In this document: positions 1-57,363 of the stretch, in pieces
Layout: each line of letters begins with the position of its first letter
Numbering within the stretch: the stretch's first letter is position 1
Assembly: GCA_036261885.1 (NCBI GenBank)
Contig: DATAJY010000005.1
Location: forward strand, 152,720 to 216,719
DNA: 64,000 nt
Origin: Thermoanaerobaculia bacterium
GTDB taxonomy: Bacteria; Acidobacteriota; Thermoanaerobaculia; Gp7-AA8
Reading direction: 5' to 3'
Position numbers and translations under genes: made by a program
Notes under the pieces: generated by a model
Database searches by the model: none
What the model was told of the DNA's origin: nothing
Seen by the model: only the letters and a program-made list of their open reading frames with translations

Positions 1-2
1 GC

Positions 3-9723: not shown

Positions 9724-9801
9724 GATCCCTTACCGGAAAGACGATCGAAGATGGAGAGTCGTGAAATTCACGAGGCGCGGTTTCTGCTTCCCGTGTCCAT
9801 C

Positions 9802-10128: not shown

Positions 10129-10179
10129 GCATCGCCCTTCACGCGGTGCGTCCGCCGTTCGTCTTCCCTGCAGATCGAC

Positions 10180-20826: not shown

Positions 20827-20832
20827 ACCCGC

Positions 20833-22671: not shown

Positions 22672-22690
22672 CGCTCGTTCGCGTGGCGTG

Positions 22691-23437: not shown

Positions 23438-25514
23438 GCACGCTCACGATGAGCAGCTCGATCCGTTCGTCCTTGTAGCCGCGTGCGCGCAACATCGTCG
23501 CCGCTTCCGCGCGCCACCGCGCGATCTCCGCATCTCCCTCCGGACGCTTCTCCATCCATGCGCGCACGAGCTCATCCCAGTCGCGCAGTTCGCGTACGTA
23601 GCCGCGCGTGACCATCTTGCGGAGCGCTTCGTTTTTCTCGACCGCGTCGTGGGCCTGAAAGTACGCCTCGCGATAGGACTGCCGGAACGCCCGCATTCCC
23701 TCTTCCGCCGTTTCGTCGCTGACGCGATAGATGCTGCGCAGCGCGGCGACTTCGCCGGGCACGCGGCGACGGCCGGCCGTGCCGCCGAGGACGTGCACGA
23801 GATCGTGACGCATGCCGCGGAAGCCGTGATTGGCGGTCCATTGATCGTAGTCGCGCCCTGGAATCGAGACCGAGTCGTGATCGACGAAGTGCACGCGCAC
23901 GCACCAGTCGCCGTTGCGAAAGACATTGCGCAGGCCGACGTTGCGCGTGACGAACGATTCCCCTTCGCTCCACATCCGCAGCGCGGTGTAGAACGCGAAG
24001 TAGTGGCCGATCTGGGAGAGCACATCGCAGAACGTCGCGTCGAGCTCCGGGCGATTGAGCGCATAGGCCTCATCGAGATACTGCGCGTACGTCGCGCCGG
24101 AAGAGGTGCGCGGCGGGAGATAGTGCGGGACGATCTCACCGAAAAGCGCATCCGCGAAACGGCGGCGGTCGTCATCCGTTGCTTCGAGCTGTAATCCCTT
24201 CGTGAAGTACTGCTCGTCGCCGTCGGGCGCCAGGTACGCGGCCAGCCGATCGAAGCGAAACGAGCTCGATCCGATCACGAACGCCTGCTCGGGTGAAGTG
24301 ACGGCCAGCCAGCGGCCGAGCGTTTCGTAGCCGCCGTGATCTCCGGCCGTGGCGTGCAGGCGATCGCTTTCGAGACGCGGCAGCGCCTTCTTCATCGCCT
24401 CGCGCATCGCGCCGAAGCCCGGGCCGTACGTCTGCGCGTTTCCGAAATACGAGACCAGCGACACGTCGCCGCGCGGTGTCGGGATCTCGAGAATCGCGGA
24501 GAGCCCGACGATGCGCGAGCCCGGTCCTTCCACTCCGTACGCGAGGCGATGCAGGCGCGCGAGAAAGCTCGCCGACGACAGCTCCCAGCGCACGAGGCGT
24601 CCGGTCGAGCCGCCCCAGAAGTGATGGTGCACCGGCACCGGATGCTTCTGGTTCTCATGCTGATAAACGCAGTCGATGACGCGGTCCCCGCGCGCGCCGG
24701 CGCGCTTGAGCTCGAGCTCGACGTCGCTGCCTGGCGGCTTGATCACCAGCGCCACGGTGCCGAGCGGATATTCGACGAGCGAATGAATGGTTGACGGTGT
24801 TTCGTCCGCGACCCAGTAGATCACCGGCTCGCTCATCAGCAGTTCGAGTATCTCGCGCTCGTACGGCGGCAGGCCCTGCTTCGCGCGGCGTGCCTCATCG
24901 AGATTGTAGGGATCGGTCTTCGGCATCTCCGGCATTCCGGAGCTCGTGCGCACGACTTGCATGATCCGGGCGACGACGTCTTCGGGCGAAAGCAGATAGC
25001 GCGAGAAAACGAGACGGCACTCGTGCCGCGAGTGATCCACGAAATCGGGTGCGCCGCGAAGAGTGTCGCGTTCGAGCGCCGCATGCACGTGATCGAATCG
25101 TCCGATGCGGCGGCGCAGTTCGCCGGCGAAGTGCAGCACGGCCACCGACGAGTAGCCTTCCTGCAGTACGACGCGCCGCACCTGCTCGAGCGAGTCGGTG
25201 AGGAGTTGCAGGCCGTGGAGAAAGGCGAGCAGATCGTCGGGGCGGGCGATGCGCAGGAACTCGTGTTCGAGCGCGAGACAGGCCAGGCGCCGCACGCCCC
25301 ACTCGTCGCCGCGTGTGCCGCGGGCGACCTCCATCAGCTCCGCCGCGTAGGCGCGATCGTGCGTGTTGCGCACGAGAAACGGCGCGAGCAGCTCCGCACC
25401 GCGGTCCGCGCACTCCGCGCCGAGGGATGCGCGCACGATCCGTCGCAGGCGCTCCGAGCCCGTACTAACGAGGAACGGCGCCGAACGGCGCCGCTCCTTT
25501 TTCACCGCGTTCAC
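23376..25514 (-). CDS. large conserved hypothetical protein (712 aa), function unknown
   Basis: Long GC3-biased frame. No motif I can assign with confidence. GTG start here, so the start is uncertain. It lies 3 bp downstream of the Lys-rich gene. Confidence 0.5.
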   Translation of the reverse strand: MNAVKKERRRSAPFLVSTGSERLRRIVRASLGAECADRGAELLAPFLVRNTHDRAYAAELMEVARGTRGDEWGVRRLACLALEHEFLRIARPDDLLAFLHGLQLLTDSLEQVRRVVLQEGYSSVAVLHFAGELRRRIGRFDHVHAALERDTLRGAPDFVDHSRHECRLVFSRYLLSPEDVVARIMQVVRTSSGMPEMPKTDPYNLDEARRAKQGLPPYEREILELLMSEPVIYWVADETPSTIHSLVEYPLGTVALVIKPPGSDVELELKRAGARGDRVIDCVYQHENQKHPVPVHHHFWGGSTGRLVRWELSSASFLARLHRLAYGVEGPGSRIVGLSAILEIPTPRGDVSLVSYFGNAQTYGPGFGAMREAMKKALPRLESDRLHATAGDHGGYETLGRWLAVTSPEQAFVIGSSSFRFDRLAAYLAPDGDEQYFTKGLQLEATDDDRRRFADALFGEIVPHYLPPRTSSGATYAQYLDEAYALNRPELDATFCDVLSQIGHYFAFYTALRMWSEGESFVTRNVGLRNVFRNGDWCVRVHFVDHDSVSIPGRDYDQWTANHGFRGMRHDLVHVLGGTAGRRRVPGEVAALRSIYRVSDETAEEGMRAFRQSYREAYFQAHDAVEKNEALRKMVTRGYVRELRDWDELVRAWMEKRPEGDAEIARWRAEAATMLRARGYKDERIELLIVSVLNHVDDVERYALLSRPELVR

Positions 25515-25517
25515 GGC

Positions 25518-25775
25518 TCAGCGCTTGCCGCCCTTGCGACCGCTCGTGCTCTTGCCACCCTTGCTGCTCTTCCCGCCTTTGCTGCTCTTGCCGCCGCCCG
25601 CGGTCTTGCCGGTGGTCTTCTTCGCGCCTTTTTTCTTCTTCTTCCCGCCGCCGCCGGCGAGTGCTTTCGAGAGCGCAAGAAACATCTGCTCAGCGACCGT
25701 TCGCGAGACGATGACCGTCACGTTGTCGACCGCTTTTCCTTTGGTACTGCCTGTCGTCGATTTTCCAGTAGCCAT
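25518..25775 (-). CDS. small lysine/glycine-rich basic protein, histone H1-like low-complexity tail (85 aa)
   Basis: ATG at 25775 with 'gaaaggggaag' RBS. 'MATGKSTTGSTKGKAVDNVTVIVSRTVAEQMFLALSKALAGGGGKKKKKGAKKTTGK...GGKSSKGGKSSKGGKS'. An alternative GTG start at 25817 would overlap the GT2 stop. Confidence 0.5.
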   Translation of the reverse strand: MATGKSTTGSTKGKAVDNVTVIVSRTVAEQMFLALSKALAGGGGKKKKKGAKKTTGKTAGGGKSSKGGKSSKGGKSTSGRKGGKR

Positions 25776-25813
25776 GTTTTCTTCCCCTTTCTTCGGGACG
25801 ATGGTTGGTCGGT

Positions 25814-26590
25814 TCACGCGACGGAGACGCCGCGACGGAGAGAGCGTTCATCGATGGGTGGATACGGCCGCCGCGCGCGGATGCGCAGCGTCGTGTCGCG
25901 CATCTCCTCGTGCATCAGCCGTCCCACGGAATGTGGATTGGCGCGGTTGTAGATCATCAGGACGTCGGCGATGTGCCGGGCGCGGCGCGTCGTGGCCATC
26001 TCCAGCATCGGGATCATGCAGGCCTGGTCTTCGACGATGCGGAAATAGCGGCCGTCGTCGTCGCGAAGGTCGCTGTCGTCGATCAGATCCCACAGCCACT
26101 TCCTGAACGTGCGCACGGCGGTGCCGAGCCAGAAGCCGCTGCGGAAATCGGTGGTGTCGTCGGGATACGCCGGCCACCTCCCTTGCGCGTGTGGAGGATC
26201 GTCTTCATTCAGTCCTTCGGCGATCCACGAGCCGTACGTCATCCAGCAGTCGAAGCGGCGATACGACTGGTCGATGATCTCCAGCGCGTGCGGCGTGGCG
26301 AAGCGGTCGTCCCCGTCGAGCACCACGATCACATCCTCCGGATCGGCGCTTCCGCGCTCGATCGCGTCGACGAGGTTGTGCATCGCCCACCGACGCTCGT
26401 CGTTCTGCCGCACGTGAAAGCGCGAGTCTCCGGCGATCGCCGCGAGCGCCCGCTCGTACGTCGCGTCGCCGCACGGATCGATCGTCAGCGTGCAGGTCCA
26501 GTCGCGCACCGTCTGGCGGCGCAACGAGGCGATGCATCCGTCGATGTACGCTTCCGCCGCGCCGCAATTCGTGATCACGCGGAACGTCAT
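25814..26590 (-). CDS. glycosyltransferase family 2 (258 aa)
   Basis: Internal ATG at 26590 ('MTFRVITNCGAAEAYIDGCIASLRRQT...') overlaps the LLM stop (ATGA). 'VIVVLDGDDRF' is a GT2 DxD motif. Confidence 0.65.
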   Translation of the reverse strand: MTFRVITNCGAAEAYIDGCIASLRRQTVRDWTCTLTIDPCGDATYERALAAIAGDSRFHVRQNDERRWAMHNLVDAIERGSADPEDVIVVLDGDDRFATPHALEIIDQSYRRFDCWMTYGSWIAEGLNEDDPPHAQGRWPAYPDDTTDFRSGFWLGTAVRTFRKWLWDLIDDSDLRDDDGRYFRIVEDQACMIPMLEMATTRRARHIADVLMIYNRANPHSVGRLMHEEMRDTTLRIRARRPYPPIDERSLRRGVSVA

Positions 26591-27630
26591 GCCACCGCCT
26601 CCCGCTGCAGCACGCGGCCCATCACTTCGCTGCCGAAGATGTGCATCTCTTCGCGCTTCGGCCAGCCGGAGAGAATGAACTGCGTGATGCCGGCGGCCTG
26701 ATATTCGAGGATCGCGGTCGCCACTTCGTCGTACGAGCCGACGATGGCCGTGGCCATCATTCCCTGCGTCGCCACCGCGCCGGTCCAGAGCCACGGCGTC
26801 AGCCATTCGCGCGCGCTGTTCTCCATCGCGCTCTGCACCATCTGCGAATCGCTGCGCGACGCGAACGATCCGAACGAGCCGTGCACGCGGGCCGGGCCGA
26901 AATCGCGAAACGCGTGCGCCGCCTCCACTGCTTCGTGGTGCGTGCGCCGCGCGATGACCATCACGCGCAAGCCGGCTTCGACGCCGCGCGCGACGATCGG
27001 TGCGATGCGCGGCGCGATCTTCGACGGGACGTCGGCCGGCAGGAGCAGGCAGTTCGCATGCTTGCCCGCCACCATGCGCGCTCCTTCCGACGCGCCGCCG
27101 ACGTAGATCTGCGGCGCACGACTGCCATCGCTGGCGACGTACGCGGTGCGCACGCGCGCCTGTTCGACGCGGTAGTACGCGCCGTCGAAATCGACCACGC
27201 CGTCGCGCCAGATGCCGCGCGCGATGGTGAGGAATTCATCGGTGCGCGCCCAGCGGTCGTCGTGCTCGAGGTAATCGCCGTACGCGCGCTGTTCGTCAGG
27301 CGTGCTGCCGGCGACGATGTTCAGCGAGATCCGCCCGTCGATGAGCGAGGAGAGCGTGTTCAGCTGCTGCACGAACGAGGTCGGAGCGAGCAGCCCGGAA
27401 CGATAGGCGATGAGGAAACGGATCTTCGACGTGGCCATGCCGAGGGCGGTCGAGAGGACGATCGAGTCGGCTTTGTCGATGCCGAAGTCGACGAGCAGTG
27501 AGTCGAAGCCGAGCCGCTCTGCATCGCGGCAGAACGGGATCTGTTCTTCGAGATGAGGTGCGGAACAGTCGCGCATGTCGCCCGGCCGGTCGTCGCCCTG
27601 CGGTAAACGCCAGTGAAAGCGCGGTTGCAT
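26587..27630 (-). CDS. luciferase-like (LLM class) flavin-dependent monooxygenase (347 aa)
   Basis: TIM-barrel LLM features 'FDSLLVDFG...', 'RISLNIVAGSTPDEQRAYGD' and 'DEFLTIARGIW'. Paralogous to the next gene. Confidence 0.75.
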   Translation of the reverse strand: MQPRFHWRLPQGDDRPGDMRDCSAPHLEEQIPFCRDAERLGFDSLLVDFGIDKADSIVLSTALGMATSKIRFLIAYRSGLLAPTSFVQQLNTLSSLIDGRISLNIVAGSTPDEQRAYGDYLEHDDRWARTDEFLTIARGIWRDGVVDFDGAYYRVEQARVRTAYVASDGSRAPQIYVGGASEGARMVAGKHANCLLLPADVPSKIAPRIAPIVARGVEAGLRVMVIARRTHHEAVEAAHAFRDFGPARVHGSFGSFASRSDSQMVQSAMENSAREWLTPWLWTGAVATQGMMATAIVGSYDEVATAILEYQAAGITQFILSGWPKREEMHIFGSEVMGRVLQREAVA

Positions 27631-27631
27631 G

Positions 27632-28729
27632 TCAGCTCGCTTTCACCGTCATCGCGGCGGCGGAGGCTTCGCGATCGCGCACGCGCGGTGCGACTTCACG
27701 CGCGAAGATCTGCATCTCCTCGATGTCCGGCCAGCCGAGGAGGAGGAATTGGGAGACGCCGGCCGCTTTGTAATCGAGGAAGGAGTCGGCGATCTCGTCG
27801 TACGAGCCGACGAAGGCCACCGAGGCCGGTCCCATGAACGGCACCGCGCCGGTCCAGAGCGTCGGCGTCAGCCACTCGGCCTGTCGCGCCAGTCCGTACA
27901 CATTGCGGCTGGCCACCGAATCGGTGCGCGCGAGAGCCTGTTCATGCACCTTGCGCGCGCTGTCGTCGAACGACGCCGTCAGCGCCTCCGCTTCGGCGAT
28001 CGCTTCCTCGCGCGTGGCGCGCGCGATCACGGAGGCGATCAGCCCGGTCTCTTTTCCGGCCGCCGCCAGGCGCGAGGCCGTTCCTCCGACCACCGAAAGG
28101 ACGTCGGGGAAACGCCAGAGACAATCGGCGTGACGGATCACCGTCTCTTCGGCCGTGCGTGAATTGCCGCCGACGAAAATCTCCGGCGCGACGCGTCCGT
28201 CCGGGGCGATGTACCGGCTGCCCAGCCGTCCGTTCGCGACGCGGAAGTGCTGCCCTTCGAAGTTGACCGTGTTCTCGCCGCGATGCCAGAACGCGTTGCA
28301 GACGGCGAGGAACTCGTCGGTGCGGCCGTAGCGTCCTTCGTGGTCGAGGAAGTCTCCGAAGCTGGCCAGCTCTTCGGGAGTGTGTCCGTTGACGATGTTC
28401 AGGCAGACGCGCCCGTTCGTCAGCGCGGAGACGGTGTTGATCTGCTGCACGAACTGCGCGGGCACGTTCACGCCCGAGCGGATGGCGATCATGAATTTGA
28501 TCTTCGACGTCATCACGCCGAGAGAGGCCGCCATCGCGATCGGGTCGGGACGATACGAGCCATACGCGGTGAGCAGCGAGTCGATTCCGCACTCCTCGGC
28601 CATCAGACAGAAGTTCAGCAGCACTTTGAAATCGGGTACGGCCGACATCGCCGCGCGCGCCTGCGTGCGACGCTTCGGATCGGCCGCCGACGACATGCTC
28701 CAGTGAAAGCGCAGGGGTGCGTCGTTCAT
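27632..28729 (-). CDS. luciferase-like (LLM class) flavin-dependent monooxygenase, paralog (366 aa)
   Basis: Internal ATG at 28729 ('MNDAPLRFHWSM...'). 'RVCLNIVNGHTPEELASFGDFLDHEGRYGRTDEFLAVCNAFW' parallels the upstream LLM. The 624-aa extension in the ORF track is spurious. Confidence 0.75.
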   Translation of the reverse strand: MNDAPLRFHWSMSSAADPKRRTQARAAMSAVPDFKVLLNFCLMAEECGIDSLLTAYGSYRPDPIAMAASLGVMTSKIKFMIAIRSGVNVPAQFVQQINTVSALTNGRVCLNIVNGHTPEELASFGDFLDHEGRYGRTDEFLAVCNAFWHRGENTVNFEGQHFRVANGRLGSRYIAPDGRVAPEIFVGGNSRTAEETVIRHADCLWRFPDVLSVVGGTASRLAAAGKETGLIASVIARATREEAIAEAEALTASFDDSARKVHEQALARTDSVASRNVYGLARQAEWLTPTLWTGAVPFMGPASVAFVGSYDEIADSFLDYKAAGVSQFLLLGWPDIEEMQIFAREVAPRVRDREASAAAMTVKAS

Positions 28730-29678
28730 GGCAAGAGCTCCTTGTTCCTCGCCGCGCGCGCGATCCGCGCGAAGAAGGTCTCGGGAAGGTGATGGACGGG
28801 AGAGAGGAACAGCAGCGCGCCGATCACCAGCGAGGCGCCGGCGAGATCGGATGCTCGCAAGGTGCCCCCGATGGCGATCGTCGCCACGATGCCGGCGAGC
28901 AGGCTCGCGCCGCGATTCAGCGGGACGCAGAACGTGTTCTCGCGACGATCGAGATAGACGCTCGTGCCGAAGAAATAGAGGAAGCCGTACATCACGCCGA
29001 CGAGCAGCCCGGCCGGCCGCAGCGAGACGATGCCGCCGCGGATCGCTGCACCCGCCGGAGTGAGCGCCGCCAGCAGCGGCAGCAGCAACTGCACCGCCAG
29101 CGCGATGATCATCTCGCCGAGGAACCAGCGGCGGGTGAGCTCGGGATCCGAAACCTTCGCCGATTTCGTCATGCGCGGCAGACGCACCGCGTACGCCGCG
29201 AGATACGCGGATGTGTTCAACACGGCCACGAACGTCATGCGCGTGTCGCCCGCATTGGCGAGTGCGATGAAGAGACCGCTCATGCTCGCCAGCAGCGCGG
29301 CCCAGCAGAACCAGCGCACGCCGCGGCCGGTCAGCGTGTCGACGACCGGCGCGAGGATCAATACGCCGCCGCGCAACAGCAGCAGCGCGAACACGATCGA
29401 CACGCCGTCGAACGTGTAGGCGAGCGTGGTGGTCACGATGATCACGCCGGTGGCGAGGCCGGCGATGATGGTGTCGGCATCGAAGCGCGGTGCGACGCGC
29501 CACCATCCGAGCGAGGCTACGAGCAGCGGCAGCGTGATGGCGGTTCCGAGCGTGACCGCCGGCAATAACGACAGCCCCGGTACCTGCGCGCCGTCCGTGA
29601 CCTGCTTCACCAGCGCGGAGTAGAACGCGTAACAGACGAAGTAGCCGAACGCGAAAAACCAGACGATGCGATTCGTCC
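28726..29678 (-). CDS. polytopic inner-membrane protein (~10 TM; possibly DMT/EamA-like, 317 aa)
   Basis: ATG at 29678 ('MVPRTNRIVWFFAFGYFVCYAFY...'). Hydrophobic segments throughout. The stop overlaps the LLM start. Confidence 0.5.
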
Positions 29679-29698
29679 GCGGCACCATGGTCGTTTCC

Positions 29699-30940
29699 TC
29701 ACGGTTTGTAGAAAGACGCGTCGAAGGGCTTGCCGAGAGCGGCGCGTCCGATGGTCGCCAGAACCTGGTCGTCGTTGTCGTGACGGATGTAGAGCGCGAG
29801 ATCGCGAAGGATTCGTTCGATCGGGCTGGGACGATTGAGACAGCGCGCCCCGCACGCGCGAACGCAGTGCTGCACCGTTTCCTCGGCCGCATGCTCCGCG
29901 ACATGACGCACGCGGCTGCCGGCCACCTGCGCCTCCGCGTACCGTCCCGTCTCCCACAACGTCGCGACGTGACGCAGCCAGAGATGCGCGGTCGAGACAT
30001 TCACCGTCATCTTCGCGACGTGATGCTGCACGTACGGATCGTCGGACTTGTTCTGCACGCGGATGCAATCGAGCGCGTAGTCGAGCGCCGCCTCCGCCGC
30101 GCCGGTGAACGACGCCGCGTAATGCGGTGCGAAACAGGTCTGCCATCCTTCGCGGAGGTACTGGCCGGGATAGCCGATGAGATTCGCGTCCGGGATGAAC
30201 GTGCCGTCGAACTTCACGGCGTGGCTCACCGTGCCGCGCATGCCGATCGGATCCCACCACGAGCCGTCGACCGATACCGACGGATCGCGCAGATCGCACG
30301 CCATCAGCAACAGGTCGTCGACGTTGCCGCCCGCATGACGCGCACCGCCGGGGCCGGAGGTGTTGACGAGCAGGATGGCCCAGTCGGCGCCGCCGGCGCT
30401 GGTGGCGAATGCCTTCACGCCGGTCAGACGCCAGCCGCCTTCGATGCGTTCGGCATAGGTGCCGAAACGCGTCTTTTCTTCCGGTGCGCGCGATTGCGGC
30501 TCACCGCTCCACGCCACCCACGTTTCGCCGCGTTCGATCACGCCGCGGAACCAGCGATCTTTCTGTTCGTCGTTGCCCGCGCCGTCGATCAGCACGAGCG
30601 AGTTCATGTGCCCTTCCCAGCAGCGGGCGAGGGAGAGATCGGCTTTGGCGATCTCCTTGGTCAGCATCCAGAGCGTGAAGACGTCGCCGCGATACGGACC
30701 GAGCCCGTAGCCGCCGTGCGTGCGCGGGACGCAGGCGCCGAGGAGCCCGGCCGCGAAGAGGTCGTCGACGCTCTCGCGCGGAAACGTGGCCGTGGCGTCG
30801 TAGTGTGCGGCGCGGGGCGCGAGCTTTTCCTTCGCCAGACGCCGCGTCTGCGCGACGAGCTCCTGCTGCGCGCGATCGAGATAGACCGCCGCGATGCCGA
30901 GGTCTTCACCGGTGGCCGTGAGCGGATCGAGCGCGGTCAT
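29699..30940 (-). CDS. acyl-CoA dehydrogenase family protein (414 aa)
   Basis: Internal ATG at 30940 ('MTALDPLTATGEDLGIAAVYLDRAQQ...'), overlapping the upstream stop (ATGA). ACAD-like middle beta-domain and C-terminal helical domain ('GGYGL...', 'MRGTVSHAVKFDG'). Confidence 0.7.
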   Translation of the reverse strand: MTALDPLTATGEDLGIAAVYLDRAQQELVAQTRRLAKEKLAPRAAHYDATATFPRESVDDLFAAGLLGACVPRTHGGYGLGPYRGDVFTLWMLTKEIAKADLSLARCWEGHMNSLVLIDGAGNDEQKDRWFRGVIERGETWVAWSGEPQSRAPEEKTRFGTYAERIEGGWRLTGVKAFATSAGGADWAILLVNTSGPGGARHAGGNVDDLLLMACDLRDPSVSVDGSWWDPIGMRGTVSHAVKFDGTFIPDANLIGYPGQYLREGWQTCFAPHYAASFTGAAEAALDYALDCIRVQNKSDDPYVQHHVAKMTVNVSTAHLWLRHVATLWETGRYAEAQVAGSRVRHVAEHAAEETVQHCVRACGARCLNRPSPIERILRDLALYIRHDNDDQVLATIGRAALGKPFDASFYKP

Positions 30941-31344
30941 GGCCGCTCCCGATAGAAGAACTCGCGGACGAAGGCGCCGATGCGGCCGCTGTCGTCGGTG
31001 AACTCGCTCTGCGTGCCGAACACCATCACGCCGCGTCGCGGCATGGCCTGCACGTGCACGCGCTGGAATCCGAAATCGTAGTCGGCGGTGAAGGCGAAGA
31101 TCTCGCGTGACTCGAACGTCGTCGCGTAGGGCGTGGCCGCGGTCTCGCCCCATTCGAATTCGCCGCCGTCGCGGCGCGAGAAGACGTTCAGCAGCAGTTT
31201 GCCGTCCGCGGCGCGAAGCGTGAATCGCGGAATGCCGGTGGAATTGCGATTCGTGCAGCGCCACGTGCCGGTCAGGCCCGAGGCATCGAGCTCCGTCGCG
31301 CTGCCGTGCGTGACTACCTGTTCGTGTGTTGCCGCCGTCGTCAT
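30937..31344 (-). CDS. small beta-barrel (lipocalin/calycin-like) hypothetical protein, paralog A (135 aa)
   Basis: 'GTWRCTNRN...REFFYR'. Paralogous to the adjacent gene. The 'GxW' start is typical of lipocalin-type barrels. Confidence 0.5.
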   Translation of the reverse strand: MTTAATHEQVVTHGSATELDASGLTGTWRCTNRNSTGIPRFTLRAADGKLLLNVFSRRDGGEFEWGETAATPYATTFESREIFAFTADYDFGFQRVHVQAMPRRGVMVFGTQSEFTDDSGRIGAFVREFFYRERP

Positions 31345-31353
31345 CGCCTCACC

Positions 31354-31758
31354 TCACACCTGATGGAAAAACTCACGCACCGCGCGGTCGGCGCGACTGC
31401 TGCCGTCTTTCATCCGCACGAACGACACGACCACGAGCAAACCCTGATTGAGATTCGCCTCGAGGTCGGTCACGCAGAAGCCGAGATCGAACGACGCGCG
31501 CCAGGCACCGCCGGCGGCGGAATCGAGCGACGCGCCGTAAAGGAAGGTCGACCGCGTGATTCCCCATTCGTCGGGCGAGCCGTGCACGCCGCCGCTAACG
31601 CTGACGGCGAGCGCGCCATCGAGTTCGTCGACGCGAACGGAGGTGACCCAGAACGGCCGCTCGTTCGTGTTGCGCCACGTCCCGACGAACGGCGCGAGGT
31701 CGATCGGCGGCCGGGGCATCGGAAACGTGCGGTTCTCGTTGTCGCGCAGATACTCCAT
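31354..31758 (-). CDS. small beta-barrel (lipocalin/calycin-like) hypothetical protein, paralog B (134 aa)
   Basis: 'GTWRNTNER...REFFHQ'. Shares its motif pattern with paralog A. Confidence 0.5.
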   Translation of the reverse strand: MEYLRDNENRTFPMPRPPIDLAPFVGTWRNTNERPFWVTSVRVDELDGALAVSVSGGVHGSPDEWGITRSTFLYGASLDSAAGGAWRASFDLGFCVTDLEANLNQGLLVVVSFVRMKDGSSRADRAVREFFHQV

Positions 31759-31780
31759 CTCGTCTGCTCTCCTTCACGCA

Positions 31781-33227
31781 CTACGCACTGAGGGCCACGT
31801 CCGCGACCGGCTCGCGGCCGAGAATTCGTTTTGTCACCGCGGCCGGCATCTCCTGGCCGGTCATGAGGCGGAACTGCGTCATCGCCTGCGTCATCAGCAC
31901 GTCGCGGCCGTCGATGGTCAGCTGTCCGCGCTCGCGCATCGAGGCCACCAGAGGCGTGGCGCTCTCGCCGTACGCGAAGTCGATGACCACCGCGTTCGAG
32001 CTGAGGCTGTCGACGTTGAACGGCGTGGCCGTTCCATCGCGGCCCACCGGCGTGGCGTTGACGATCACCGAGTAGCCGCCGGCGGAGAAGCCGGCGAGCG
32101 GACGGAATGGCAGTTTCAGAAGATGCAGCGCGAACGACGCCCGATCGAAGCCGCGATTGACCATGGTCACGTCGGCGCCCGCCTGATGCAGCGCCGCCGC
32201 GACCGCCCGTCCCGAGCCGCCGCATCCGATCACGGCGATGCGCTGCTGTCCCGGATCGATGCCGCGCTCGCGCAGCGTGACCAGCACCCCTTCGGGATCG
32301 GTTGTGTCGGCGGTCCACTGATCGCCTTCCTTGATGAAGAAGTTGCTCGACCACGCGCGCTCGACGATTCGCGAGCGCACCTTCGTCGCCGCGAGCGCCA
32401 CCTCTTTGTGCGGCGAGACGATGCAGAACGCGCCGGCGTCGAAGCCGAGCTTCTCGATGGCGTTCTGCTCGACCACGTTCTGCCAGAAGAGATCGAACCG
32501 ATCGACGTGGAAGGGGAGATAGAGCGCCGGCCGGCCGATCGCTTCGAAGGCGGCGTTGTGGAGGCGCGGCGAAAGCGACTGCAGCACCGGACTGCCGACG
32601 ATGCCGAACAGCTCCCGGATCTCGCGCCGGTGCGGAAAGCCGTAGTCGGTGACGAGCTGCTCGACGGTCGGCAGGCCGGGCTCTTCGCTCCTGGTGAGCG
32701 TGGCCGTAATGAATGGTGCACCAACGAATGGCGAGACGAGGCGCGTCCAGAAGCCGATCGCGCCGGTGGCATACGCGGCCACGTCATTGCGGCCGCACTC
32801 GCGCATCAGCTGCAGCGGGAACAGCTCTTCTCCCGAATTGCGGACCTCCGCCTCGAGGCGGTACCAGCGCGCCGGAGTGAAAGTGATCTGATAAAGACGC
32901 TCGCGCAATTCGTCGAGCGAGTACGCGCGGCCGCGCCAGGTGATGATGCGGCGCTCGGCCGGAATCGCGCGCAGCACCGCGGCGGTGAGGTCGCTCTTTT
33001 CCAGCAGTACGAAATCGAAGCGCGCCGCGGCCTCGAGCAGGCAGGCGCGGCGTGCCGGCCCCCGTTCCCGCGTCGAATAGACGAGCGGACCATCGAATCG
33101 CGAGCGCACCAGCTCCGGATCGATGCCCTCCGGTACTTCCAGCAGCCCGGTTTCCGGCGGCAGAGCGGACAACTCCTCCATGAGGCGGTCGCGCGAGAGC
33201 GCCGCCATGATCAGCGAGGTGAACATG
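31781..33227 (-). CDS. bifunctional-looking 3-dehydroquinate dehydratase-like N-domain fused to shikimate/quinate dehydrogenase (AroE-like, 482 aa)
   Basis: Internal ATG at 33227. C-terminal half has the SDH signature 'GIVGSPVLQSLSPRLHNAAFEAIG' and NAD(P) Rossmann 'VIGCGGSGRAVAAALHQAGADVTMVNR'. The N-terminal ~230 aa resemble type-I DHQase; that call is weaker. Confidence 0.6.
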
Positions 33228-33270
33228 GTTGTATCTCGTAGACGACCGGCGCGTGCCGCGTGTGAAACGG

Positions 33271-33921
33271 CTACGGCGTGGAGTTGCGTTTCGTTCGCGG
33301 CGGCAGGTTGCGGCGCAGAATTTCCCGCGCCAGCTGCACGCGCTTGCGCACGTTGGCCTGCGTGATCGAGAGCTTCTGCGAAATGCTTTCGTACGGCGCC
33401 TCGGCGAGGAAATGGAGTTGCGCCACGTCCCGCAGCCGCGGCGGCAGTTCCGTGATCGCGCGCACGATGCACGCGTACCCCTCATGCGTCAGCGTCACGT
33501 CTTCCGGCGAGAGCGGCTGTTCCTGCGGATGTTCCTGCTCGATCTGCACGAGCTCCTCCGCCATCCCCACGCCGATGGCCATCCGCCGCTGCTCGCGCTG
33601 GATGTCGGTGCAGACGTTCAGCACGATCCGCGTGAGCCACGCCTGCACGTTGTTGATGCCGTTCGCGTACTGCGGCATCTTCGAGCAGGCCACCATCATC
33701 GACCGGCTCATCGCATCGGCCGCATCGCACGACAGCCCGTTCATGCGCCGCAGACAAACGTTGTAGAGATGGCGGTGATGGCGCAGCCAGAGCTGCCAGA
33801 AGGCATCGGCGTCGCCGCCGTCCAGCGCCTCCAGCAGCGTGCGTTCGGGGGTCTCGACATCGGCGACGGCCCGCGAGCCGGCGCCCCAATCCTCCTCCCT
33901 GCGGGAGATTCGAGCAGACAT
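33271..33921 (-). CDS. ECF-type RNA polymerase sigma-70 factor (216 aa)
   Basis: Region-2-like 'FWQLWLRHHRHLYNVCLRRM' and region-4 HTH 'YESISQKLSITQANVRKRVQLAREIL'. It heads the minus-strand operon. Confidence 0.75.
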   Translation of the reverse strand: MSARISRREEDWGAGSRAVADVETPERTLLEALDGGDADAFWQLWLRHHRHLYNVCLRRMNGLSCDAADAMSRSMMVACSKMPQYANGINNVQAWLTRIVLNVCTDIQREQRRMAIGVGMAEELVQIEQEHPQEQPLSPEDVTLTHEGYACIVRAITELPPRLRDVAQLHFLAEAPYESISQKLSITQANVRKRVQLAREILRRNLPPRTKRNSTP

Positions 33922-34083
33922 GTCCTCATCCTTTCTCTCGAAGGCAAGACCGAGGCGAAAACTGAAGCTATGTCTTAGGAGTGCAGTCCCGAAATAAATC
34001 CCTACCCATCCGAATAGGTAAATTTTTAGCGACTGCCGTTTTTGAGGGTTGGCAGGGGAGAAGGAAGCGCGAACGGTCCGCGT
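33922..34083 (-). promoter_or_regulatory. relatively AT-rich intergenic region upstream of the ECF sigma operon (putative promoter)
   Basis: ~50% GC stretch ('ccgaaataaatccctacccatccgaataggtaaatttttagcg') in a ~70% GC background. It lies between the stop of the upstream gene and the sigma ATG. Confidence 0.3.
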
Positions 34084-35460
34084 TCAGCGAGCCTGGAACC
34101 GGATCGTGGCGATGTTTTCGCCGGTCAGCACGCGCACCGAGATCGGCGCCGCGAACTCCGAGGCGATCTCGTAGAGCATCTGTCCCTCCGCCGCGGTGCG
34201 GTACGGCCAGAACTCGTAGGTTCCGGGCGGCACGTGCTGCAGGGAGATGTTTCCCTCGGCGTTGGTCATGAGCGAGAACCCGCGGCTGCTGAGCAGGCGC
34301 GCGATCTCCGGCGGCACGACCATGCCGTCGATGCGCATCAGCAGCCGCAGATCGGAGAACGCCTCACCGGCATCGGTCTTCAACGCCAACTGCAGCGACG
34401 ATGTCCCTTCCGGGACACGAACGGTCAGCGGGCCGGCGCCTTCCGCGCGTACCAGCGCGATCGACCCGCCCTGCGGCACGACGTAGATCGCGCAGACCGC
34501 ATCCGCCGGCAGCGCCACGTCGGCACGTCCTTCGGCATTCGAGGTCGCCGTCGATTTCACGTGGCCGTTGCACGAGGTGAGCAGTGTGGCGCCGGCGATC
34601 GCCGCTCCGCGCGCATCGACGACCCGGACGACGCGCGGCTCTCCGTGCGTGAGCGTCAGGTCGACGGAATGCTCTCCGCTCGGTCCGTTGAGCTCGAAGC
34701 GCGCCGCGTCGCTGTCGACATACGAAGGCATGCGCGCGGTCAGCGTCTGTGCGCCCTCGCGCACGCCGAAGAATTCGAAGGCGCCGTCGGGTCCGGAGCG
34801 CGCGCGCACCGTCAGCGCCGACTGGCTCGCTTCGGAGCGGAGATTCACCACCGCGCCGGCGATCGGCACTCGGTCGCGATCGACGACGTGGCCGCGCACA
34901 TGGCGGTCGGGCACATCGATCGTCACCAGTTGCGGAGCGACATACACGTCCGCGCGATGCGGCGCGGAGAGAGGATTGCGACTGACGCTCGCGGTGTAGA
35001 CGGCCGGCTCCCACAGCTCACCCGCGAACTGTCCGTCTTCGCCGGTCTCGACTCTCGTGTCCCAGCGCAGCTCGTCGTGCGTCAGGGCGATGGCCGCGTG
35101 CGGGATCGGCGCGCCTGCCAGCGTCGCGCGCAGGATGGTCTTCCCTTTCGGGATGTCGAGACGAACGCTGTTGCCGCTCGGGCCGAGGTTTGCTTTTGCG
35201 CTGAGACGTTGCAGCGGACGCGGTCCGCTCACCAGCACGACATACAACCCTTCGGACAAGCCGTCGAAGCGGACGGACGACTGTCGCGCGGCCAGCGTTT
35301 TCGCCGACGACCACTCCGGCGGCCGGCCCTCGACGCGAGAGGCGACGGCCACGTCGATCGGGCCGGTGAACCCGTGACGATTCACCTCCACGTTCAGCGT
35401 GGCGGCCGATGCGGTCTGAGCGAAGAGCAGGATGAACGCGAAAACGAACGACGCACGCAT
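34084..35460 (-). CDS. secreted protein with carboxypeptidase-regulatory-like beta-sandwich repeats (458 aa)
   Basis: Signal peptide 'MRASFVFAFILLFAQTASA'. Repeats such as 'GHVVDRDRVPIAGAVVNL', 'RVVDARGAAIAGATLL' and 'GLYVVLVSG'. Confidence 0.65.
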   Translation of the reverse strand: MRASFVFAFILLFAQTASAATLNVEVNRHGFTGPIDVAVASRVEGRPPEWSSAKTLAARQSSVRFDGLSEGLYVVLVSGPRPLQRLSAKANLGPSGNSVRLDIPKGKTILRATLAGAPIPHAAIALTHDELRWDTRVETGEDGQFAGELWEPAVYTASVSRNPLSAPHRADVYVAPQLVTIDVPDRHVRGHVVDRDRVPIAGAVVNLRSEASQSALTVRARSGPDGAFEFFGVREGAQTLTARMPSYVDSDAARFELNGPSGEHSVDLTLTHGEPRVVRVVDARGAAIAGATLLTSCNGHVKSTATSNAEGRADVALPADAVCAIYVVPQGGSIALVRAEGAGPLTVRVPEGTSSLQLALKTDAGEAFSDLRLLMRIDGMVVPPEIARLLSSRGFSLMTNAEGNISLQHVPPGTYEFWPYRTAAEGQMLYEIASEFAAPISVRVLTGENIATIRFQAR

Positions 35461-35911: not shown

Positions 35912-38431
35912 TCACGCCGTCCCTCCGCAGTTCCGGAGCGCATCGCGCATCGCGGCCGCGCTGGCGAAGCGGTCGCGCGGCGCGCGCCGCAGCGAGGTGA
36001 GGAGCACGTCCGCGAGTGCGGCGGGAACGAGTGGCTGCAGCGTCCGCGGATCGGCGACGTCTTCGCCGAGGATGCGATTCATGGTCAGGACGGCAGTGCC
36101 GGCCGCGAACGGATTCGCGCCGGTCAGCGCTTCGTAGAGCGTCACGCCGATGCTCCAGACGTCCGCCGCCGGGCTCGCCACCTCTCCGATCGCCACCTCC
36201 GGCGCGAGATAACGCGGCGTGCCGGCGATGTTCGTCGTGCCTGTCTCGCGTGCGAACGCGGCCAGCCCGAAGTCGAGCAGCTTCGGGGTGTCGTTTCGAT
36301 CGAAGCCGATGTTCGACGGCTTCACGTCGCGATGCAGCACGCCCGCCGCGTGCGCATGCGCCAGCGCATCGCAGAGCGCGATGCCGATGCGCAGCACTTC
36401 GCCGGCCGCGAGCGGGCCGCGCTCCAGGCGTTCCGCCAGCGTGCCTCCGTCGAGCAGTTCGAAGAGCAGCAGCGGTTGTCCGCGCCAGCTGTCGGCCGCG
36501 TGGATCGTGGCGATCGATGGATGCGACAGCGCCGCTGCCGCGTGAGCCTCCCGTTCGAAGCGCGCGATCGCATCGGCTCCGACGGCCGGCAGCATCTTGA
36601 CGGCGATGTCGCGGCCGAGGGCGAGATCGCGCACCTGATAGACGACGCCCATCGCACCGCTGCCGATACGGCGCTCGAAGCGGAACTTCGCATGCAGCAC
36701 GTGCGGGACGTTCGCCGCAACGAGCGGCATGTCGTCCTGCGCGCAGCGTGTGGCGGCGAGCGGGTCGGTCACCCGCGCGCACGCGGGACAGATCCGCGCG
36801 AGCTCGGGATCGTCGAGGACGACGGGCGCCGGTCTCGCCTCGCGCAATCGAATGGTCTCGAGCGCGAGGGCGGTCGCGCTGCCGATCGTGCCCGCCAGCA
36901 GGCGATCGTTCTCATCGAACGGCAGGCCGCTCATCTTCTCTCCCGCCGCGAGCACCGCGGAGCCGGCCGGCACGAGCAGCCGGATCTGACGCTGTTCGAG
37001 CCACTGGCGTTCGATCGTCGAGAGTGTGGCCAGGAACCGCGCATCGACGTCGGCGATCGCGTCGATCGTGCTCATGCGCCACGAGGGTTCAGGCGTGACC
37101 AGCGTCGCCGATTCGAGTCGCAGCGCCGCGGTCAGCGTTTCGGCGACGTCGCGGGCGAGTGCCTCCGTGGTGGTCACGGAGTGCACGCGCTGTGTGAAGT
37201 CGTGCAGTACGCGCCGCGCGTCGGCCGTGTCGCGGAGAAACGTGCGCTCCAGCGATCTGCGCGCGAGGCGTGCGAGCGCGATCAGCGCGATCGCGAGCAG
37301 CGCGAGGAAGCTGCGCGTCACGAGCAGCACTGCCACGACGACCAGCATCACCGCCAGCAGCGTGCGATCGGCGACGGCGAAGACGACCGCGCGGCGGGTG
37401 AGAACGCCGGCACGTTCGACGCGGCGTGCCAGCAGCGCGTAGGCGAGGGAGAGCGGAACGAGCAGCAGCGGCAACAGCAGCAACGCCATGAGCTCGCGCG
37501 GCATCGCCAGCCGTGACGTGACGGCGAGCGAGAGGAACTGCACGAGCATGCCGGCCAGCGGAATGCCGATGCCGAGGAGCAGGCCGAGGGCGACGAGGCG
37601 CGCGCGGTCGCGCATCTCGGCGGCCCCCCGCGTGCGCAGTTGCCGTACGACGAGCAGCAGCGCGGCCACGACGGTCGCGAGATACGGCACGCTCTGCAGC
37701 AGCGCACCTTCGACGAGCGAGGCGATCGCGGTGGCGCCGGGAACGCGATCGAACAGCACACCGATCTGCGACCACGCGAAAAGAATCGACCGCGCGATGG
37801 CGAGGAACGATACGGCGCCGAGAATCGCGCGCATCACGCGGCCGATCGGCAGCGCGTGCGGCAGATCGGCCGCGAGGAGCAGCAGGTAGCGGCACCAGAG
37901 CGCGGCCGGCACGAGCGCGTAGAGCACGATGATCGCGTCGCGCAGTGCGCGCGAGTCGATGAGCACGAGGTTCGGCTCGAGAAACCCGAAGCCGAGCGTC
38001 GCGCCGGCGCCGGCGAGAAAGCCTCCCGCGTGCAGCGCCGCGCGATTCTGTCCCGCGAGGCCGAGGGCCAGGCCGGCCACGAGCGAGACGAGCGCGAGCA
38101 ACGCGAGCACCGCGCGACGCACGAGCGTGGCGCGGTCGGCGGCGACGTTGCGCACCGGGCCGCGCACGATGCGTCCGTCGCGCAGCCGATAGGCGATCTC
38201 GCTTCCTACCGGCGCATTGCGAAATCGCCGTCGGGCCTCCGGCGACGCCGCCGCGACGAACGGCGCATTGCCGAAACGAATGGCCACGACGCCCGCGTCG
38301 CGCGCGGGAAACGGCAGCGGATGCACGCGCATCGTGGCGATCGTGCCGATGGCCATCGGTGCGAGCGGCAGCACCACGAGCGCACAGCAGATGCAGAACA
38401 GCCGAATGACTGCAGGCCGCAGGGAAGTCAT
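35912..38431 (-). CDS. membrane-anchored Ser/Thr protein kinase with large N-terminal multi-TM sensor region (840 aa)
   Basis: Internal ATG at 38431 ('MTSLRPAVIRLFCICCALVVLPLA...'), then ~8 TM helices. C-terminal Hanks kinase 'GSGAMGVVYQV', 'AVKML', 'HRDVKPSNIGF', 'DFGLA' and 'GTPRYLAPE'. The upstream 218 codons in the ORF track are Ser/Arg-rich junk. Confidence 0.7.
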   Translation of the reverse strand: MTSLRPAVIRLFCICCALVVLPLAPMAIGTIATMRVHPLPFPARDAGVVAIRFGNAPFVAAASPEARRRFRNAPVGSEIAYRLRDGRIVRGPVRNVAADRATLVRRAVLALLALVSLVAGLALGLAGQNRAALHAGGFLAGAGATLGFGFLEPNLVLIDSRALRDAIIVLYALVPAALWCRYLLLLAADLPHALPIGRVMRAILGAVSFLAIARSILFAWSQIGVLFDRVPGATAIASLVEGALLQSVPYLATVVAALLLVVRQLRTRGAAEMRDRARLVALGLLLGIGIPLAGMLVQFLSLAVTSRLAMPRELMALLLLPLLLVPLSLAYALLARRVERAGVLTRRAVVFAVADRTLLAVMLVVVAVLLVTRSFLALLAIALIALARLARRSLERTFLRDTADARRVLHDFTQRVHSVTTTEALARDVAETLTAALRLESATLVTPEPSWRMSTIDAIADVDARFLATLSTIERQWLEQRQIRLLVPAGSAVLAAGEKMSGLPFDENDRLLAGTIGSATALALETIRLREARPAPVVLDDPELARICPACARVTDPLAATRCAQDDMPLVAANVPHVLHAKFRFERRIGSGAMGVVYQVRDLALGRDIAVKMLPAVGADAIARFEREAHAAAALSHPSIATIHAADSWRGQPLLLFELLDGGTLAERLERGPLAAGEVLRIGIALCDALAHAHAAGVLHRDVKPSNIGFDRNDTPKLLDFGLAAFARETGTTNIAGTPRYLAPEVAIGEVASPAADVWSIGVTLYEALTGANPFAAGTAVLTMNRILGEDVADPRTLQPLVPAALADVLLTSLRRAPRDRFASAAAMRDALRNCGGTA

Positions 38432-38475
38432 TTGTGCTGGAATTGAAATGCTGCTTTCTATACTAGCTGCCTTCA
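38432..38475. promoter_or_regulatory. AT-rich divergent promoter region between the kinase and LuxR genes
   Basis: 'tttgtgctggaattgaaatgctgctttctatactagctgcct' is ~40% GC, sharply below background, and is flanked by two divergent start codons. Confidence 0.35.
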
Positions 38476-43666: not shown

Positions 43667-43783
43667 CCCGATGTGCTGCTTTGATTCCCTCCCGCCCGGT
43701 GCTCGTTGCTTTCTTCCTTCCATCCGTGCTTTAGTGCGTTCCGGTCCCGCTCACAATTCAAGAATCGAAAAAGGGAGGCATCC

Positions 43784-51268: not shown

Positions 51269-51373
51269 GACGCCCGACCGGACCGGCGCTCTCTCACATG
51301 AGGGTGTGACGCGAACCGCGGTTTTGAGACCGCCGGTCGATTTCGTGCGAGCTCATCCATCGGCGCCGCATCC

Positions 51374-56197: not shown

Positions 56198-56334
56198 TGC
56201 TGAAGGGAAGTACCGAGAAAATGATACGCCGCCTTCCACAAAAACGGCGTGGCGGAATCGTCTTGTACGGGAGCCGATGGAAAAACGCGGGCCTTCGTCA
56301 GTCGTGGTGATGGAGGAGAGAACAATGCCCGCTA

Positions 56335-57344: not shown

Positions 57345-57363
57345 GGCTCGCAGGCGATCGCTC

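Follow-up and report, generated by a model that had tools for sequence, protein, structure and literature searches.

A putative sigma factor-controlled operon, conserved in Acidobacteriota, that combines a pseudo-dehydroquinase::shikimate dehydrogenase fusion, paired small barrels and a SelO-like enzyme

Our subject is an operon from a Thermoanaerobaculia bacterium, of the phylum Acidobacteriota. It lies in a 64,000-nucleotide stretch of contig DATAJY010000005.1 (positions 152,720 to 216,719), referred to throughout as the window, and all coordinates without a locus name are positions in that stretch. Gene calls place a minus-strand extracytoplasmic function (ECF) sigma factor gene (33271-33921) ahead of eight co-directional, tightly packed genes. 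This agrees with a preliminary description, made from the same DNA, and Pfam and NCBIfam support the domain assignments given there. The preliminary description closed the cluster at position 25814. However, two further co-directional genes continue the unit to position 23376, and both are kept with the operon in relatives. Hence, the full unit has 11 genes and occupies about 10.5 kb of the minus strand (23376-33921). The components are as follows.

33976..34006, minus strand: promoter-like motif GGTAGGGA-N15-CACTCCTA, upstream of the sigma gene
33271-33921, minus strand: ECF sigma factor, 216 aa (Pfam and NCBIfam)
31781-33226, minus strand: fusion of a 3-dehydroquinate dehydratase (DHQase)-like domain to a shikimate dehydrogenase (SDH), 481 aa (Pfam Shikimate_dh_N, weak DHquinase_I)
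31354-31758, minus strand: barrel 1, a calycin-like beta-barrel, 134 aa (structure model; without a Pfam family)
30937-31344, minus strand: barrel 2, a calycin-like beta-barrel, 135 aa (paralog of barrel 1)
29699-30940, minus strand: flavoenzyme with an acyl-CoA dehydrogenase (ACAD) fold, 413 aa (Pfam Acyl-CoA_dh_N, M, 1 and 2)
28726-29688, minus strand: polytopic membrane protein, 320 aa (hydropathy; about 9-10 hydrophobic segments)
27632-28729, minus strand: luciferase-like monooxygenase (LLM) 1, 365 aa (Bac_luciferase)
26587-27630, minus strand: LLM2, a second luciferase-like monooxygenase, 347 aa (Bac_luciferase)
25814-26590, minus strand: small soluble glycosyltransferase of family 2 (GT2), 258 aa (Glycos_transf_2)
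25518-25775, minus strand: small polycationic protein, 85 aa (conserved core and Lys/Gly/Ser-rich tail)
23376-25514, minus strand: SelO-like enzyme with a protein-kinase fold, 712 aa, the final gene of the unit (structure model)

The genes sit close together. ATGA overlaps join barrel 2 to the ACAD-like gene, the membrane protein to LLM1, and LLM2 to GT2. The other junctions between the fusion and GT2 are gaps of 22, 9, 10, and 1 nt. Hence, only three of these seven junctions are ATGA overlaps, and not most of them as first reported. Similarly, a gap given as about 20 bp (29678-29699) is 10 nt long (29689-29698). The fusion gene follows the sigma gene after 44 nt, the small gene follows GT2 after 38 nt, and the 712-aa gene follows after 3 nt more. 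A terminator-like hairpin (34082-34068) separates the gene upstream from the promoter-like motif of the sigma gene. We found no sigma-70-type promoter inside the operon, and an Rfam scan of the whole window returned no RNA element. The region before the sigma gene is 51% GC, compared with 66% for the window, so the reported AT-rich upstream region is borne out. PADLOC gave no match for the operon's family-less proteins, which makes a defence system unlikely.

The arrangement recurs in other genomes (loci numbered with the prefix L). The whole order, from the sigma gene to the 712-aa gene, is present in L001-L003 and L004/L005, two further lineages of Thermoanaerobaculia whose flanks differ. 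Note that L001 has this order minus the membrane-protein gene. A core order of sigma factor, fusion, barrel, barrel, ACAD-like gene, and membrane protein is repeated in L004, L013 (a 5.08-Mb contig), L014 (a Vicinamibacterales contig), and L015 (which, with L011, is a Thermoanaerobaculia-like contig). L012, on a 51%-GC contig, has genes for the fusion, the ACAD-like protein, and two LLMs, with the two barrels fused in one protein. The fusion adjoins the barrel pair and ACAD-like gene in the close relatives L001 and L004, where fusion identity is 76-84%. The same linkage is found in four distant loci, at 46-52% fusion identity. Scattered orthologs would have told against the preliminary description; instead, they stay together. 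The ACAD-like gene is the most conserved of the module, at 63-94% identity, compared with 30-55% for its neighbours in distant loci. Two further variants are more distant (L007, 12043-21429; L010, 4432-14132). In both, the barrels and the LLMs are present as pairs, along with the genes for the small protein and the SelO-like enzyme. The fusion and ACAD-like gene are replaced by TauD, several PhyH, several methyltransferases, GT25, and ATP-grasp. Where source records name the organism, the module is found only in Acidobacteriota. Since the same gene order recurs in independent lineages, the arrangement is not due to chance. We regard it as very probable, at roughly 85%, that these genes form a dedicated, conserved pathway module controlled by the sigma factor.

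The sigma factor consists of regions 2 and 4 only (Pfam Sigma70_r2 and Sigma70_r4_2) and scores 83.8 bits against TIGR02937, for which the cut-off is 42.9. Its orthologs (43-79% identity) occupy the first position of the operon in L001, L004, L014, and L015. In L013, the ortholog sits 5 kb upstream of the core operon. At that locus, a DDE transposase (8369-9844) is inserted between SCO1 genes and the fusion gene, parting the sigma gene from the core operon. The neighbours of the sigma gene in the window are the SDH fusion downstream and, upstream, a gene for a secreted protein with CarboxypepD_reg repeats (34084-35460, minus strand), which lies directly upstream of the promoter-like motif.

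The promoter-like motif is about 40-70 nt before the sigma start codon and is identical in the window, L001, and L004. The sigma orthologs of L013, L014, and L015 are preceded by a near-identical GGTAGGGAA...CTCCT(A/T)A. Hence, a motif of the type GGTAGGGA(A)-N15-CTCCTAA precedes the sigma gene in six lineages. A regular-expression search recovered a single full copy in the window. Because the motif is conserved upstream of the sigma gene, we infer that the sigma factor transcribes its own operon, and that the motif is a candidate for its own, autoregulated, ECF promoter. A second perfect copy of the motif, GGTAGGGAAAAACATCCCTGTGTCACTCCTA, occurs in L014 (620-650, minus strand) upstream of a family-less gene encoding 792 aa. 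That gene may be another member of the sigma factor's regulon.

Comparison with other groups bears on how the sigma factor might be controlled. We found no anti-sigma gene adjoining the sigma gene in the window or in five other lineages examined. The same is true of the ECF43 group (EcfP/PknT and EcfK/PknS). These are kinase-activated sigma factors that have lost the DAED motif and have a conserved adjacent Ser/Thr kinase (PMC8999054). Further likenesses are the Ser/Thr kinase genes near the sigma gene (35912-39085 in the window, and adjoining the sigma gene in L001) and conserved Ser residues in region 2.2. This region reads DAADAMSRSM, with Ser72-Arg73-Ser74 invariant. However, with DAAD at the DAED position, most of the negative charge is kept. 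Furthermore, the kinase adjoins the sigma gene only in L001 and is two genes away in the window; the adjacency is not conserved in L004, L013, L014, or L015. On these grounds we rule out membership of ECF43. Control of the sigma factor by a kinase is possible. The nearest kinase gene in the window (35912-39085, minus strand) encodes a 1057-aa protein, with a C-terminal Ser/Thr kinase domain, that could act on the sigma factor; note that the arrangement is not conserved. Further away is a gene for a 1290-aa Ser/Thr kinase with an AAA_16 STAND-type ATPase (47480-51352, minus strand), adjoined by one for a 1201-aa TPR-CHAT protein (52137-55742, minus strand). A kinase with the same architecture as the 1290-aa protein divergently adjoins the sigma gene in L001.

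The first gene after the sigma factor encodes the fusion. Among PDB structures, Arabidopsis DHQ-SDH (2gpt) matches it best, at 92 bits. In the SDH half, the fusion retains SxS, the catalytic Lys and Asp, the Asn, Tyr, and Gln residues, GxGGxG, and NADP-type NRxxxR. In all 121 relatives of the fusion, the SxS serines and both catalytic residues (Lys and Asp) are unchanged. Hence, the domain can be placed, by sequence, in the shikimate dehydrogenase superfamily. The N-terminal half is different. Its Pfam DHquinase_I score (19.8 bits) is below the threshold of 22.2, and a profile made from the domain weakly matches the DHQase 2ox1 (E 0.028). The Schiff-base Lys, equivalent to Lys170, is absent from 118 of the 121 relatives (Arg in 101, Val in 13, Gly in 3, and Lys in 3), and no His aligns with the His143 position of type I DHQases. 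Note that E. coli AroE and AroD served as reference sequences, and that the assignment of the Lys170 column is provisional, though consistent. The N-terminal domain, to judge from these residues and scores, does not appear to be a type I 3-dehydroquinate dehydratase. Of the earlier label, 'AroD/AroE-like dehydrogenase', the AroE part therefore stands, with catalytic residues intact, and the AroD part appears to fall with the Schiff-base Lys.

Plant DHQ-SDH and the Chlamydia-type AroDE (NF006802) have the same order of two domains, and the same SDH residues are kept. The fusion differs from them in having an N-terminal half that is only faintly DHQase-like, and in being embedded in a sigma-controlled, non-aromatic operon. 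All equivalog cut-offs for AroE and AroDE are missed (TIGR00507 and PRK00258); the TIGR00507 score is 137.7 bits and the cut-off is 200.2. The proteins thus appear to be a distinct family of pseudo-DHQase::SDH fusions rather than standard AroDE. An alternative is that the fusion is the housekeeping AroD-AroE of aromatic amino-acid synthesis and that its neighbours are functionally unrelated. The SDH domain is, after all, fully canonical in its catalytic residues, and some relatives are annotated at source as 'type I 3-dehydroquinate dehydratase'. However, scores are below the cut-offs, an ECF sigma factor heads the operon, and the fusion is linked to the same neighbours in two close relatives and four distant loci. 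Because of the lost Lys and the conserved synteny we reject this alternative as extremely unlikely. The original impression that this is not a standard primary-metabolism operon is upheld.

The ACAD-like protein has the complete three-domain ACAD fold (Pfam Acyl-CoA_dh_N, M, 1, and 2). Its best NCBIfam matches are SfnB, 3-sulfinopropanoyl-CoA desulfinase, and DszC, with HsaA also near. All are far below cut-off, with 88 bits compared with an equivalog cut-off of 431. Of PDB structures, 5z8t, an 'ACAD type 2 domain protein', is closest. Our literature search found no paper mentioning either 5GJ7 or 5Z8T, the best PDB matches. In alignments to the true ACADs 8i4p and 1ws9, RHDND stands in place of the catalytic motif YEGT, and the ACAD-like protein has an unchanged RHDNDD in seven lineages. 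Hence, the name 'acyl-CoA dehydrogenase', used previously, is right for the fold and wrong for the catalytic Glu. The protein looks like a group-D flavin oxygenase or oxidase.

Both LLMs match Bac_luciferase (2.7e-39 for LLM1 and 1e-44 for LLM2). They are paralogs, as already proposed, and are 43% identical. For LLM1, the best NCBIfam match is the SsuD model (160 bits). The two proteins score 160 and 181 bits, and the cut-off is 518. For LLM2, the best PDB match is MsuD (7jv3, 158 bits). Models for F420-dependent enzymes give at most 57 bits, against cut-offs of at least 167, whereas models for flavin mononucleotide (FMN)-type enzymes (SsuD and SfnG) score threefold higher. We thus reject F420 dependence: of the two options in the preliminary 'flavin/F420-type', the subfamily models support FMN(H2). 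The active site of SsuD is formed by Cys54, Arg226, His228, Arg297, Tyr331, and His333. LLM2 retains Arg226 alone, and the LLMs lack Cys54, His228, Arg297, Tyr331, and His333. Orthology with SsuD or MsuD is rejected because scores are below the equivalog cut-off and the active-site residues are not kept. In the distant locus L011, the LLM1-type and LLM2-type orthologs remain distinguishable, which suggests that the two proteins are an old heteromeric pair.

The best matches above raise the possibility of organosulfur scavenging, like that of ssu, msu, and sfn operons. The LLMs and the ACAD-like oxygenase would then release sulfite from sulfonates or sulfones. Sulfur-acquisition sets (SsuD/MsuD/SfnG with SfnB/MsuC/DszC) are the source of the top-scoring curated families and structures for the operon's flavoenzymes: SsuD, MsuD, and SfnG for the LLMs, and SfnB, the desulfinase, DszC, and MsuC for the ACAD-like protein. 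As in those sets, two LLMs are found with one ACAD-fold protein that lacks the catalytic Glu. In L012, an adjacent ATP-binding cassette (ABC) importer also has an oxyanion-type binding protein (SBP_bac_11). However, the operon's proteins reach only about a third of the cut-offs, or less (160-181 compared with 518 bits, and 88 compared with 431), and the SsuD residues listed above are lost. The operon has no flavin reductase, sulfonate-binding protein, or sulfonate transporter, and its regulation and neighbours are of another kind. The ECF sigma factor, SDH fusion, barrels, GT2, and SelO-like linkage have no counterpart in ssu, msu, or sfn operons. We consider this explanation very unlikely.

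The two small proteins between the fusion and the ACAD-like gene are paralogous (30% identity, E 4e-14) and have the motifs GTWxxTN, FDxGF, DDSGR, and REFF in common. Barrel 1 models as an 8-stranded up-and-down barrel. This calycin-like model, and the identity between the two, support their first description as lipocalin-like paralogs. Neither barrel has a Pfam, NCBIfam, PADLOC, or PDB sequence match, and neither has a signal peptide. An exact-sequence look-up of barrel 1 returned nothing, and relatives were reached through homology. The nearest are all from metagenome assemblies of Thermoanaerobaculia or Acidobacteriota. A profile search at E<=1e-3 gave 867 cluster representatives for the family. 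Of the best 149, 91 (61%) are doublets of 200-340 aa, with both barrels fused. Among the same 149, only four have a hydrophobic N-terminus and about 80-85% contain DxSxR and RE[FY][FY]. A scan of GTDB genomes with a narrow barrel-derived peptide pattern found only two metagenome-assembled genomes, both already known. Because fusion into one protein is frequent, the barrels probably work as a pair, which argues that they act together in the cytoplasm.

Calycins include avidin and streptavidin, lipocalins, fatty-acid-binding proteins, and phenolic acid decarboxylase. Barrel 1 resembles them in its 8 strands, about 115 structured residues, and N-terminal GxW. Differences are that the operon barrels are outside any Pfam family, are predicted to be cytoplasmic, and always occur as a paralogous pair or fused doublet. 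The DDSGR and REFF signatures are peculiar to them.

At the far end of the operon are the genes for the small polycationic protein and the SelO-like enzyme. The 85-aa protein has a conserved core of 25 aa (VTVIVSRTVAEQMFLALSKALAG), followed by a tail rich in Lys, Gly, and Ser. Its overall composition is 22% Lys, 22% Gly, and 24% Ser plus Thr. We found no Pfam or PADLOC match and no signal peptide. The gene of about 700 aa is directly preceded, in L001, L004, L006, L007, and L010, by a small gene that encodes the same core and a KG-, KD-, or KP-rich tail. A further contig, P0022, has a small open reading frame that was recognised by its position there. The two SelO-like paralogs of L011/L015 have no adjacent small open reading frame.

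For the 712-aa protein we found no Pfam match at E<=0.01, and no PDB, NCBIfam, or PADLOC sequence match. The structure model, with a predicted local distance difference test (pLDDT) value of 92.6, has YdiU, the enterobacterial SelO, as its top Foldseek match (probability 0.99). K259, N525, and D545 are invariant and, mapped by inspection rather than superposition, are at the positions of the kinase beta-3 Lys, the Mg-binding Asn, and the DFG Asp. No Asp is present at the HRD position. This pattern of residues matches that of SelO, and both SelO and YdiU modify proteins (PMC8097203). According to the model, the 712-aa protein has a kinase-like fold that is closest to SelO/YdiU. By sequence, it falls outside the Pfam SelO family. 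It further differs from SelO/YdiU in having large extra helical regions (compare the 476-aa SelO chain, 6eac), only 15% identity over the aligned region, and a polycationic small protein as partner. The family of about 700 aa comprises more than 120 clusters, almost all from Acidobacteriota where the organism is named.

The main rival to a small-molecule pathway is modification of a protein or peptide, of the ribosomally synthesised and post-translationally modified peptide (RiPP) type or like that of silaffin or collagen. The small Lys/Gly/Ser-rich protein would be the substrate. Its 25-aa core would dock the enzymes and its tail would be modified. The SelO-like enzyme would AMPylate or phosphorylate it, the flavin oxygenases would act on side chains, joined in other variants by PhyH/TauD, methyltransferases, and GT25, and GT2 would add sugar. 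The product would be a decorated polycation for the cell surface. Several observations fit. The small gene is 3 nt before the SelO-like gene and the two are kept together in the five loci above, with a small reading frame in the same position in P0022. A conserved core with hypervariable Lys-rich tails resembles a leader/core design. Other variants hold PhyH, TauD, methyltransferases, GT25, GT4, and an ATP-grasp enzyme, and proteins are the targets of SelO and YdiU. However, in L012, L013, and L014 the core of fusion, barrels, ACAD-like gene, and membrane protein occurs with neither the small protein nor a SelO-like gene, and both SelO-like paralogs of L011/L015 are without the small reading frame. 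Furthermore, it is hard to see what an SDH whose substrate pocket is fully conserved would do to a protein. The small protein also lacks a signal peptide, and neither a peptidase nor an exporter is encoded in the operon. On balance, we think protein modification unlikely, though well worth bearing in mind.

The remaining operon genes encode the membrane protein and GT2. The former is presumed to be a transporter. A faint match to the EamA-like TIGR03340 (E 0.002) was seen. Orthologs with 43-82% identity come after the ACAD-like gene in L004, L011/L015, L013, and L014. In two of these loci, the membrane protein carries a fused LMWPc domain, of the low-molecular-weight phosphatase or arsenate-reductase-like kind (L013, 13520-15043; L014, 13497-14975). 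Such fusions hint at a phosphorylated intermediate or substrate. The LMWPc domain is common in polysaccharide export systems. In L012 (510-2144), an LMWPc domain is instead fused to the ATPase of the adjacent ABC importer. The GT2 protein scores 36.6 bits against Glycos_transf_2, compared with a threshold of 23.3, and has a DGDD (DxD-type) motif, which confirms the earlier assignment to glycosyltransferase family 2. GT2 orthologs (58-78% identity) are found after the LLM pair in L001, L004, and L011.

These genes also invite an explanation in which the core function is remodelling of an envelope or exopolysaccharide glycoconjugate. GT2, along with GT32 and GT4 enzymes encoded nearby, would be central, the ECF sigma factor would provide a link to envelope stress, and the oxidoreductases would make or tailor an unusual sugar or sugar-acid. 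SDH-family enzymes can reduce keto-sugars, and 5-ketofructose reductase (7cok), a member of that family, is among the PDB matches of the fusion. The wider locus has four glycosyltransferases, the L014 and L012 variants have a DegT sugar aminotransferase and an NAD epimerase/dehydratase, and the LMWPc fusions of L013 and L014 are consistent with this explanation. Conversely, the operon has no Wzx, Wzy, Wzz, polyprenyl-phosphate transferase, or nucleotide-sugar synthase. The SDH pocket residues are exactly those of shikimate/quinate enzymes, and the invariant core has no glycosyltransferase. Glycoconjugate remodelling is, we believe, distinctly unlikely.

We now turn to the genes around the operon. 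Those of most interest are as follows.

8611-9729, minus strand: double-domain SCO1/SenC copper chaperone
10129-12967, plus strand: GT4, PhyH dioxygenase, and a second GT4-like gene, upstream of the giant oxidase
13057-20826, plus strand: giant secreted MnxG-type multicopper oxidase, 2589 aa (match to PDB 9bxa)
20833-22671, plus strand: YNCE beta-propeller (Pfam)
22688-23437, plus strand: GT32-like glycosyltransferase (Pfam Gly_transf_sug)

The oxidase, YNCE, and GT32 genes (13057-23437, plus strand) are convergent with the operon. The giant oxidase has no Pfam match. It aligns with MnxG (9bxa) in five stretches, at E 7e-90 and 305 bits, which points to homology. The protein has a Sec signal peptide, copper motifs (HxH/HCH and HCH..M), and four C-terminal cupredoxin repeats with the blue-copper signature CxxHxxxM. 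Homologs of the oxidase, YNCE, SCO1, and GT32 genes adjoin the module, or parts of it, in L004, L007, L010, L011, L013, and L014. In L013, the MnxG homolog is directly downstream of the core, on the same strand. The set of genes tabulated above is found again at other Acidobacteriota loci.

The known system most like this is mnxEFG of Bacillus sp. PL-12, where Mnx requires two paralogous accessory proteins of about 12 kDa that have no known homologs and are encoded beside mnxG (PMC5622069). Here too, two small paralogs are encoded near a giant protein homologous to MnxG. The oxidase described here is different, with 2589 aa, the four extra cupredoxin repeats, and the Sec signal peptide. Furthermore, the operon barrels have no similarity to any PDB chain, and many enzymes at this locus have no mnx counterpart. 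We considered whether the barrels are accessory subunits of the giant oxidase, like Bacillus MnxE and MnxF, with the rest of the operon supporting oxidase maturation. The recurrence of two paralogous barrels of about 14 kDa near an MnxG homolog is in keeping with this idea. However, the oxidase has a signal peptide and the barrels do not, and the barrel pair is also present in L012 and L014, with no MnxG homolog in range. We hold such a role to be highly improbable. Identity of the barrels with MnxE/F was rejected as unsupported, since the structure is calycin-like and there is no PDB sequence match.

Some other genes in the window should be mentioned. About 10 kb from the operon, a protein with a tyrosinase/polyphenol-oxidase domain is encoded (43685-45373, plus strand; Pfam Tyrosinase, 1.4e-32), and is a second copper phenol oxidase in the window. 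Further along is a subtilase with PatG_D and PatG_C domains, and thus the architecture of a cyanobactin-type macrocyclase (57340-59235, plus strand). It is preceded by a gene for a family-less protein of 428 aa (56058-57344, plus strand). This may be an unrelated RiPP locus. Three more genes have no evident link to the operon. They encode a DUF6519 protein cut by the window edge (2-1480, plus strand), a Castor/Pollux-type RCK ion channel (4400-6379, minus strand), and an ArsR-rhodanese fusion regulator (60705-61394, minus strand).

How might the module function? The scheme we prefer is a small-molecule pathway, in which a shikimate/quinate-class compound is oxygenated, glycosylated, and exported for use with the oxidase. 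Briefly, a signal would activate the sigma factor, and the operon would be transcribed from the promoter-like motif. In the cytoplasm, the NADP-type SDH domain would oxidise or reduce a hydroxy-carboxylate of the shikimate/quinate class, the proposed substrate being suggested by the conserved residues. The DHQase-like domain, predicted to be catalytically dead, would serve as a binding module. The ACAD-fold flavoenzyme, and the heteromeric LLM pair of FMNH2 type, would then oxygenate the intermediate. The barrels, for which gene fusion indicates partnership, may be a heterodimeric ligand-binding or cyclase-like subunit. GT2 would add a sugar and the membrane protein would carry the product across the membrane. 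A glycosylated cyclitol or aromatic acid, as the preliminary description suggested, would be a speculative candidate for the product. At the cell surface, the product might serve the secreted MnxG-type oxidase as a substrate, metal ligand, or redox mediator, as synteny would suggest. The SelO-like ATP-using enzyme and the polycationic small protein are best viewed as a separate sub-module. The small protein would probably be a target of nucleotidylation or phosphorylation by the enzyme, or else its scaffold.

Various points weigh against this scheme. Each chemical step is deduced from similarity at the level of fold or family, and the oxidase is connected by synteny. Indeed, no MnxG homolog was seen within the 10-kb flanks of L001, L006, L012, or L014. 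Neither a flavin reductase nor a CoA ligase is encoded in the operon or window. The membrane protein has no Pfam family and belongs to no recognisable transporter family, and its gene is absent from the L001 operon. In addition, the PhyH, TauD, methyltransferases, and GT25 of the distant variants, with the Lys-rich protein, fit protein modification equally well. The small-molecule scheme, taken as a whole, is therefore tentative, and we would put it somewhat short of even odds.

A broader idea is that the operon is the cytoplasmic half of an undescribed, Acidobacteriota-wide, extracellular apparatus for metal oxidation or oxidative cross-linking. The sigma factor would induce an exported, shikimate-derived, oxygenated ligand for the MnxG-type oxidase. 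A silaffin-like polycation, nucleotidylated or phosphorylated by the SelO-like enzyme, would template or anchor a mineral or polymer at the surface. This is speculative, and we think it improbable.

All of the catalytic folds at this locus are already known. What is new is the combination of genes, the pseudo-DHQase::SDH family, the paired and seemingly cytoplasmic barrels, the SelO-like family with its polycationic partner, and the link to a giant oxidase. None of these elements is described in the literature that we searched. Similarly, no paper among those searched links MnxG to such an acidobacterial locus or names this combination of enzymes.

Acidobacteriota rank with the most abundant bacteria in soil, and for most of the gene clusters that they conserve no function has been assigned. 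The operon adds three sizeable families without a database entry: the paired barrels, the SelO-like enzymes of about 700 aa, and the polycationic small proteins. The SelO-like family would add a branch to the short list of kinase-fold enzymes with non-kinase chemistry. With a sigma factor that has a recognisable promoter motif, it should be possible to induce the operon in a heterologous host or a cultured relative. If the linkage with the oxidase is functional, specialised chemistry in the cytoplasm would be tied to extracellular oxidation of manganese or phenols in soils.

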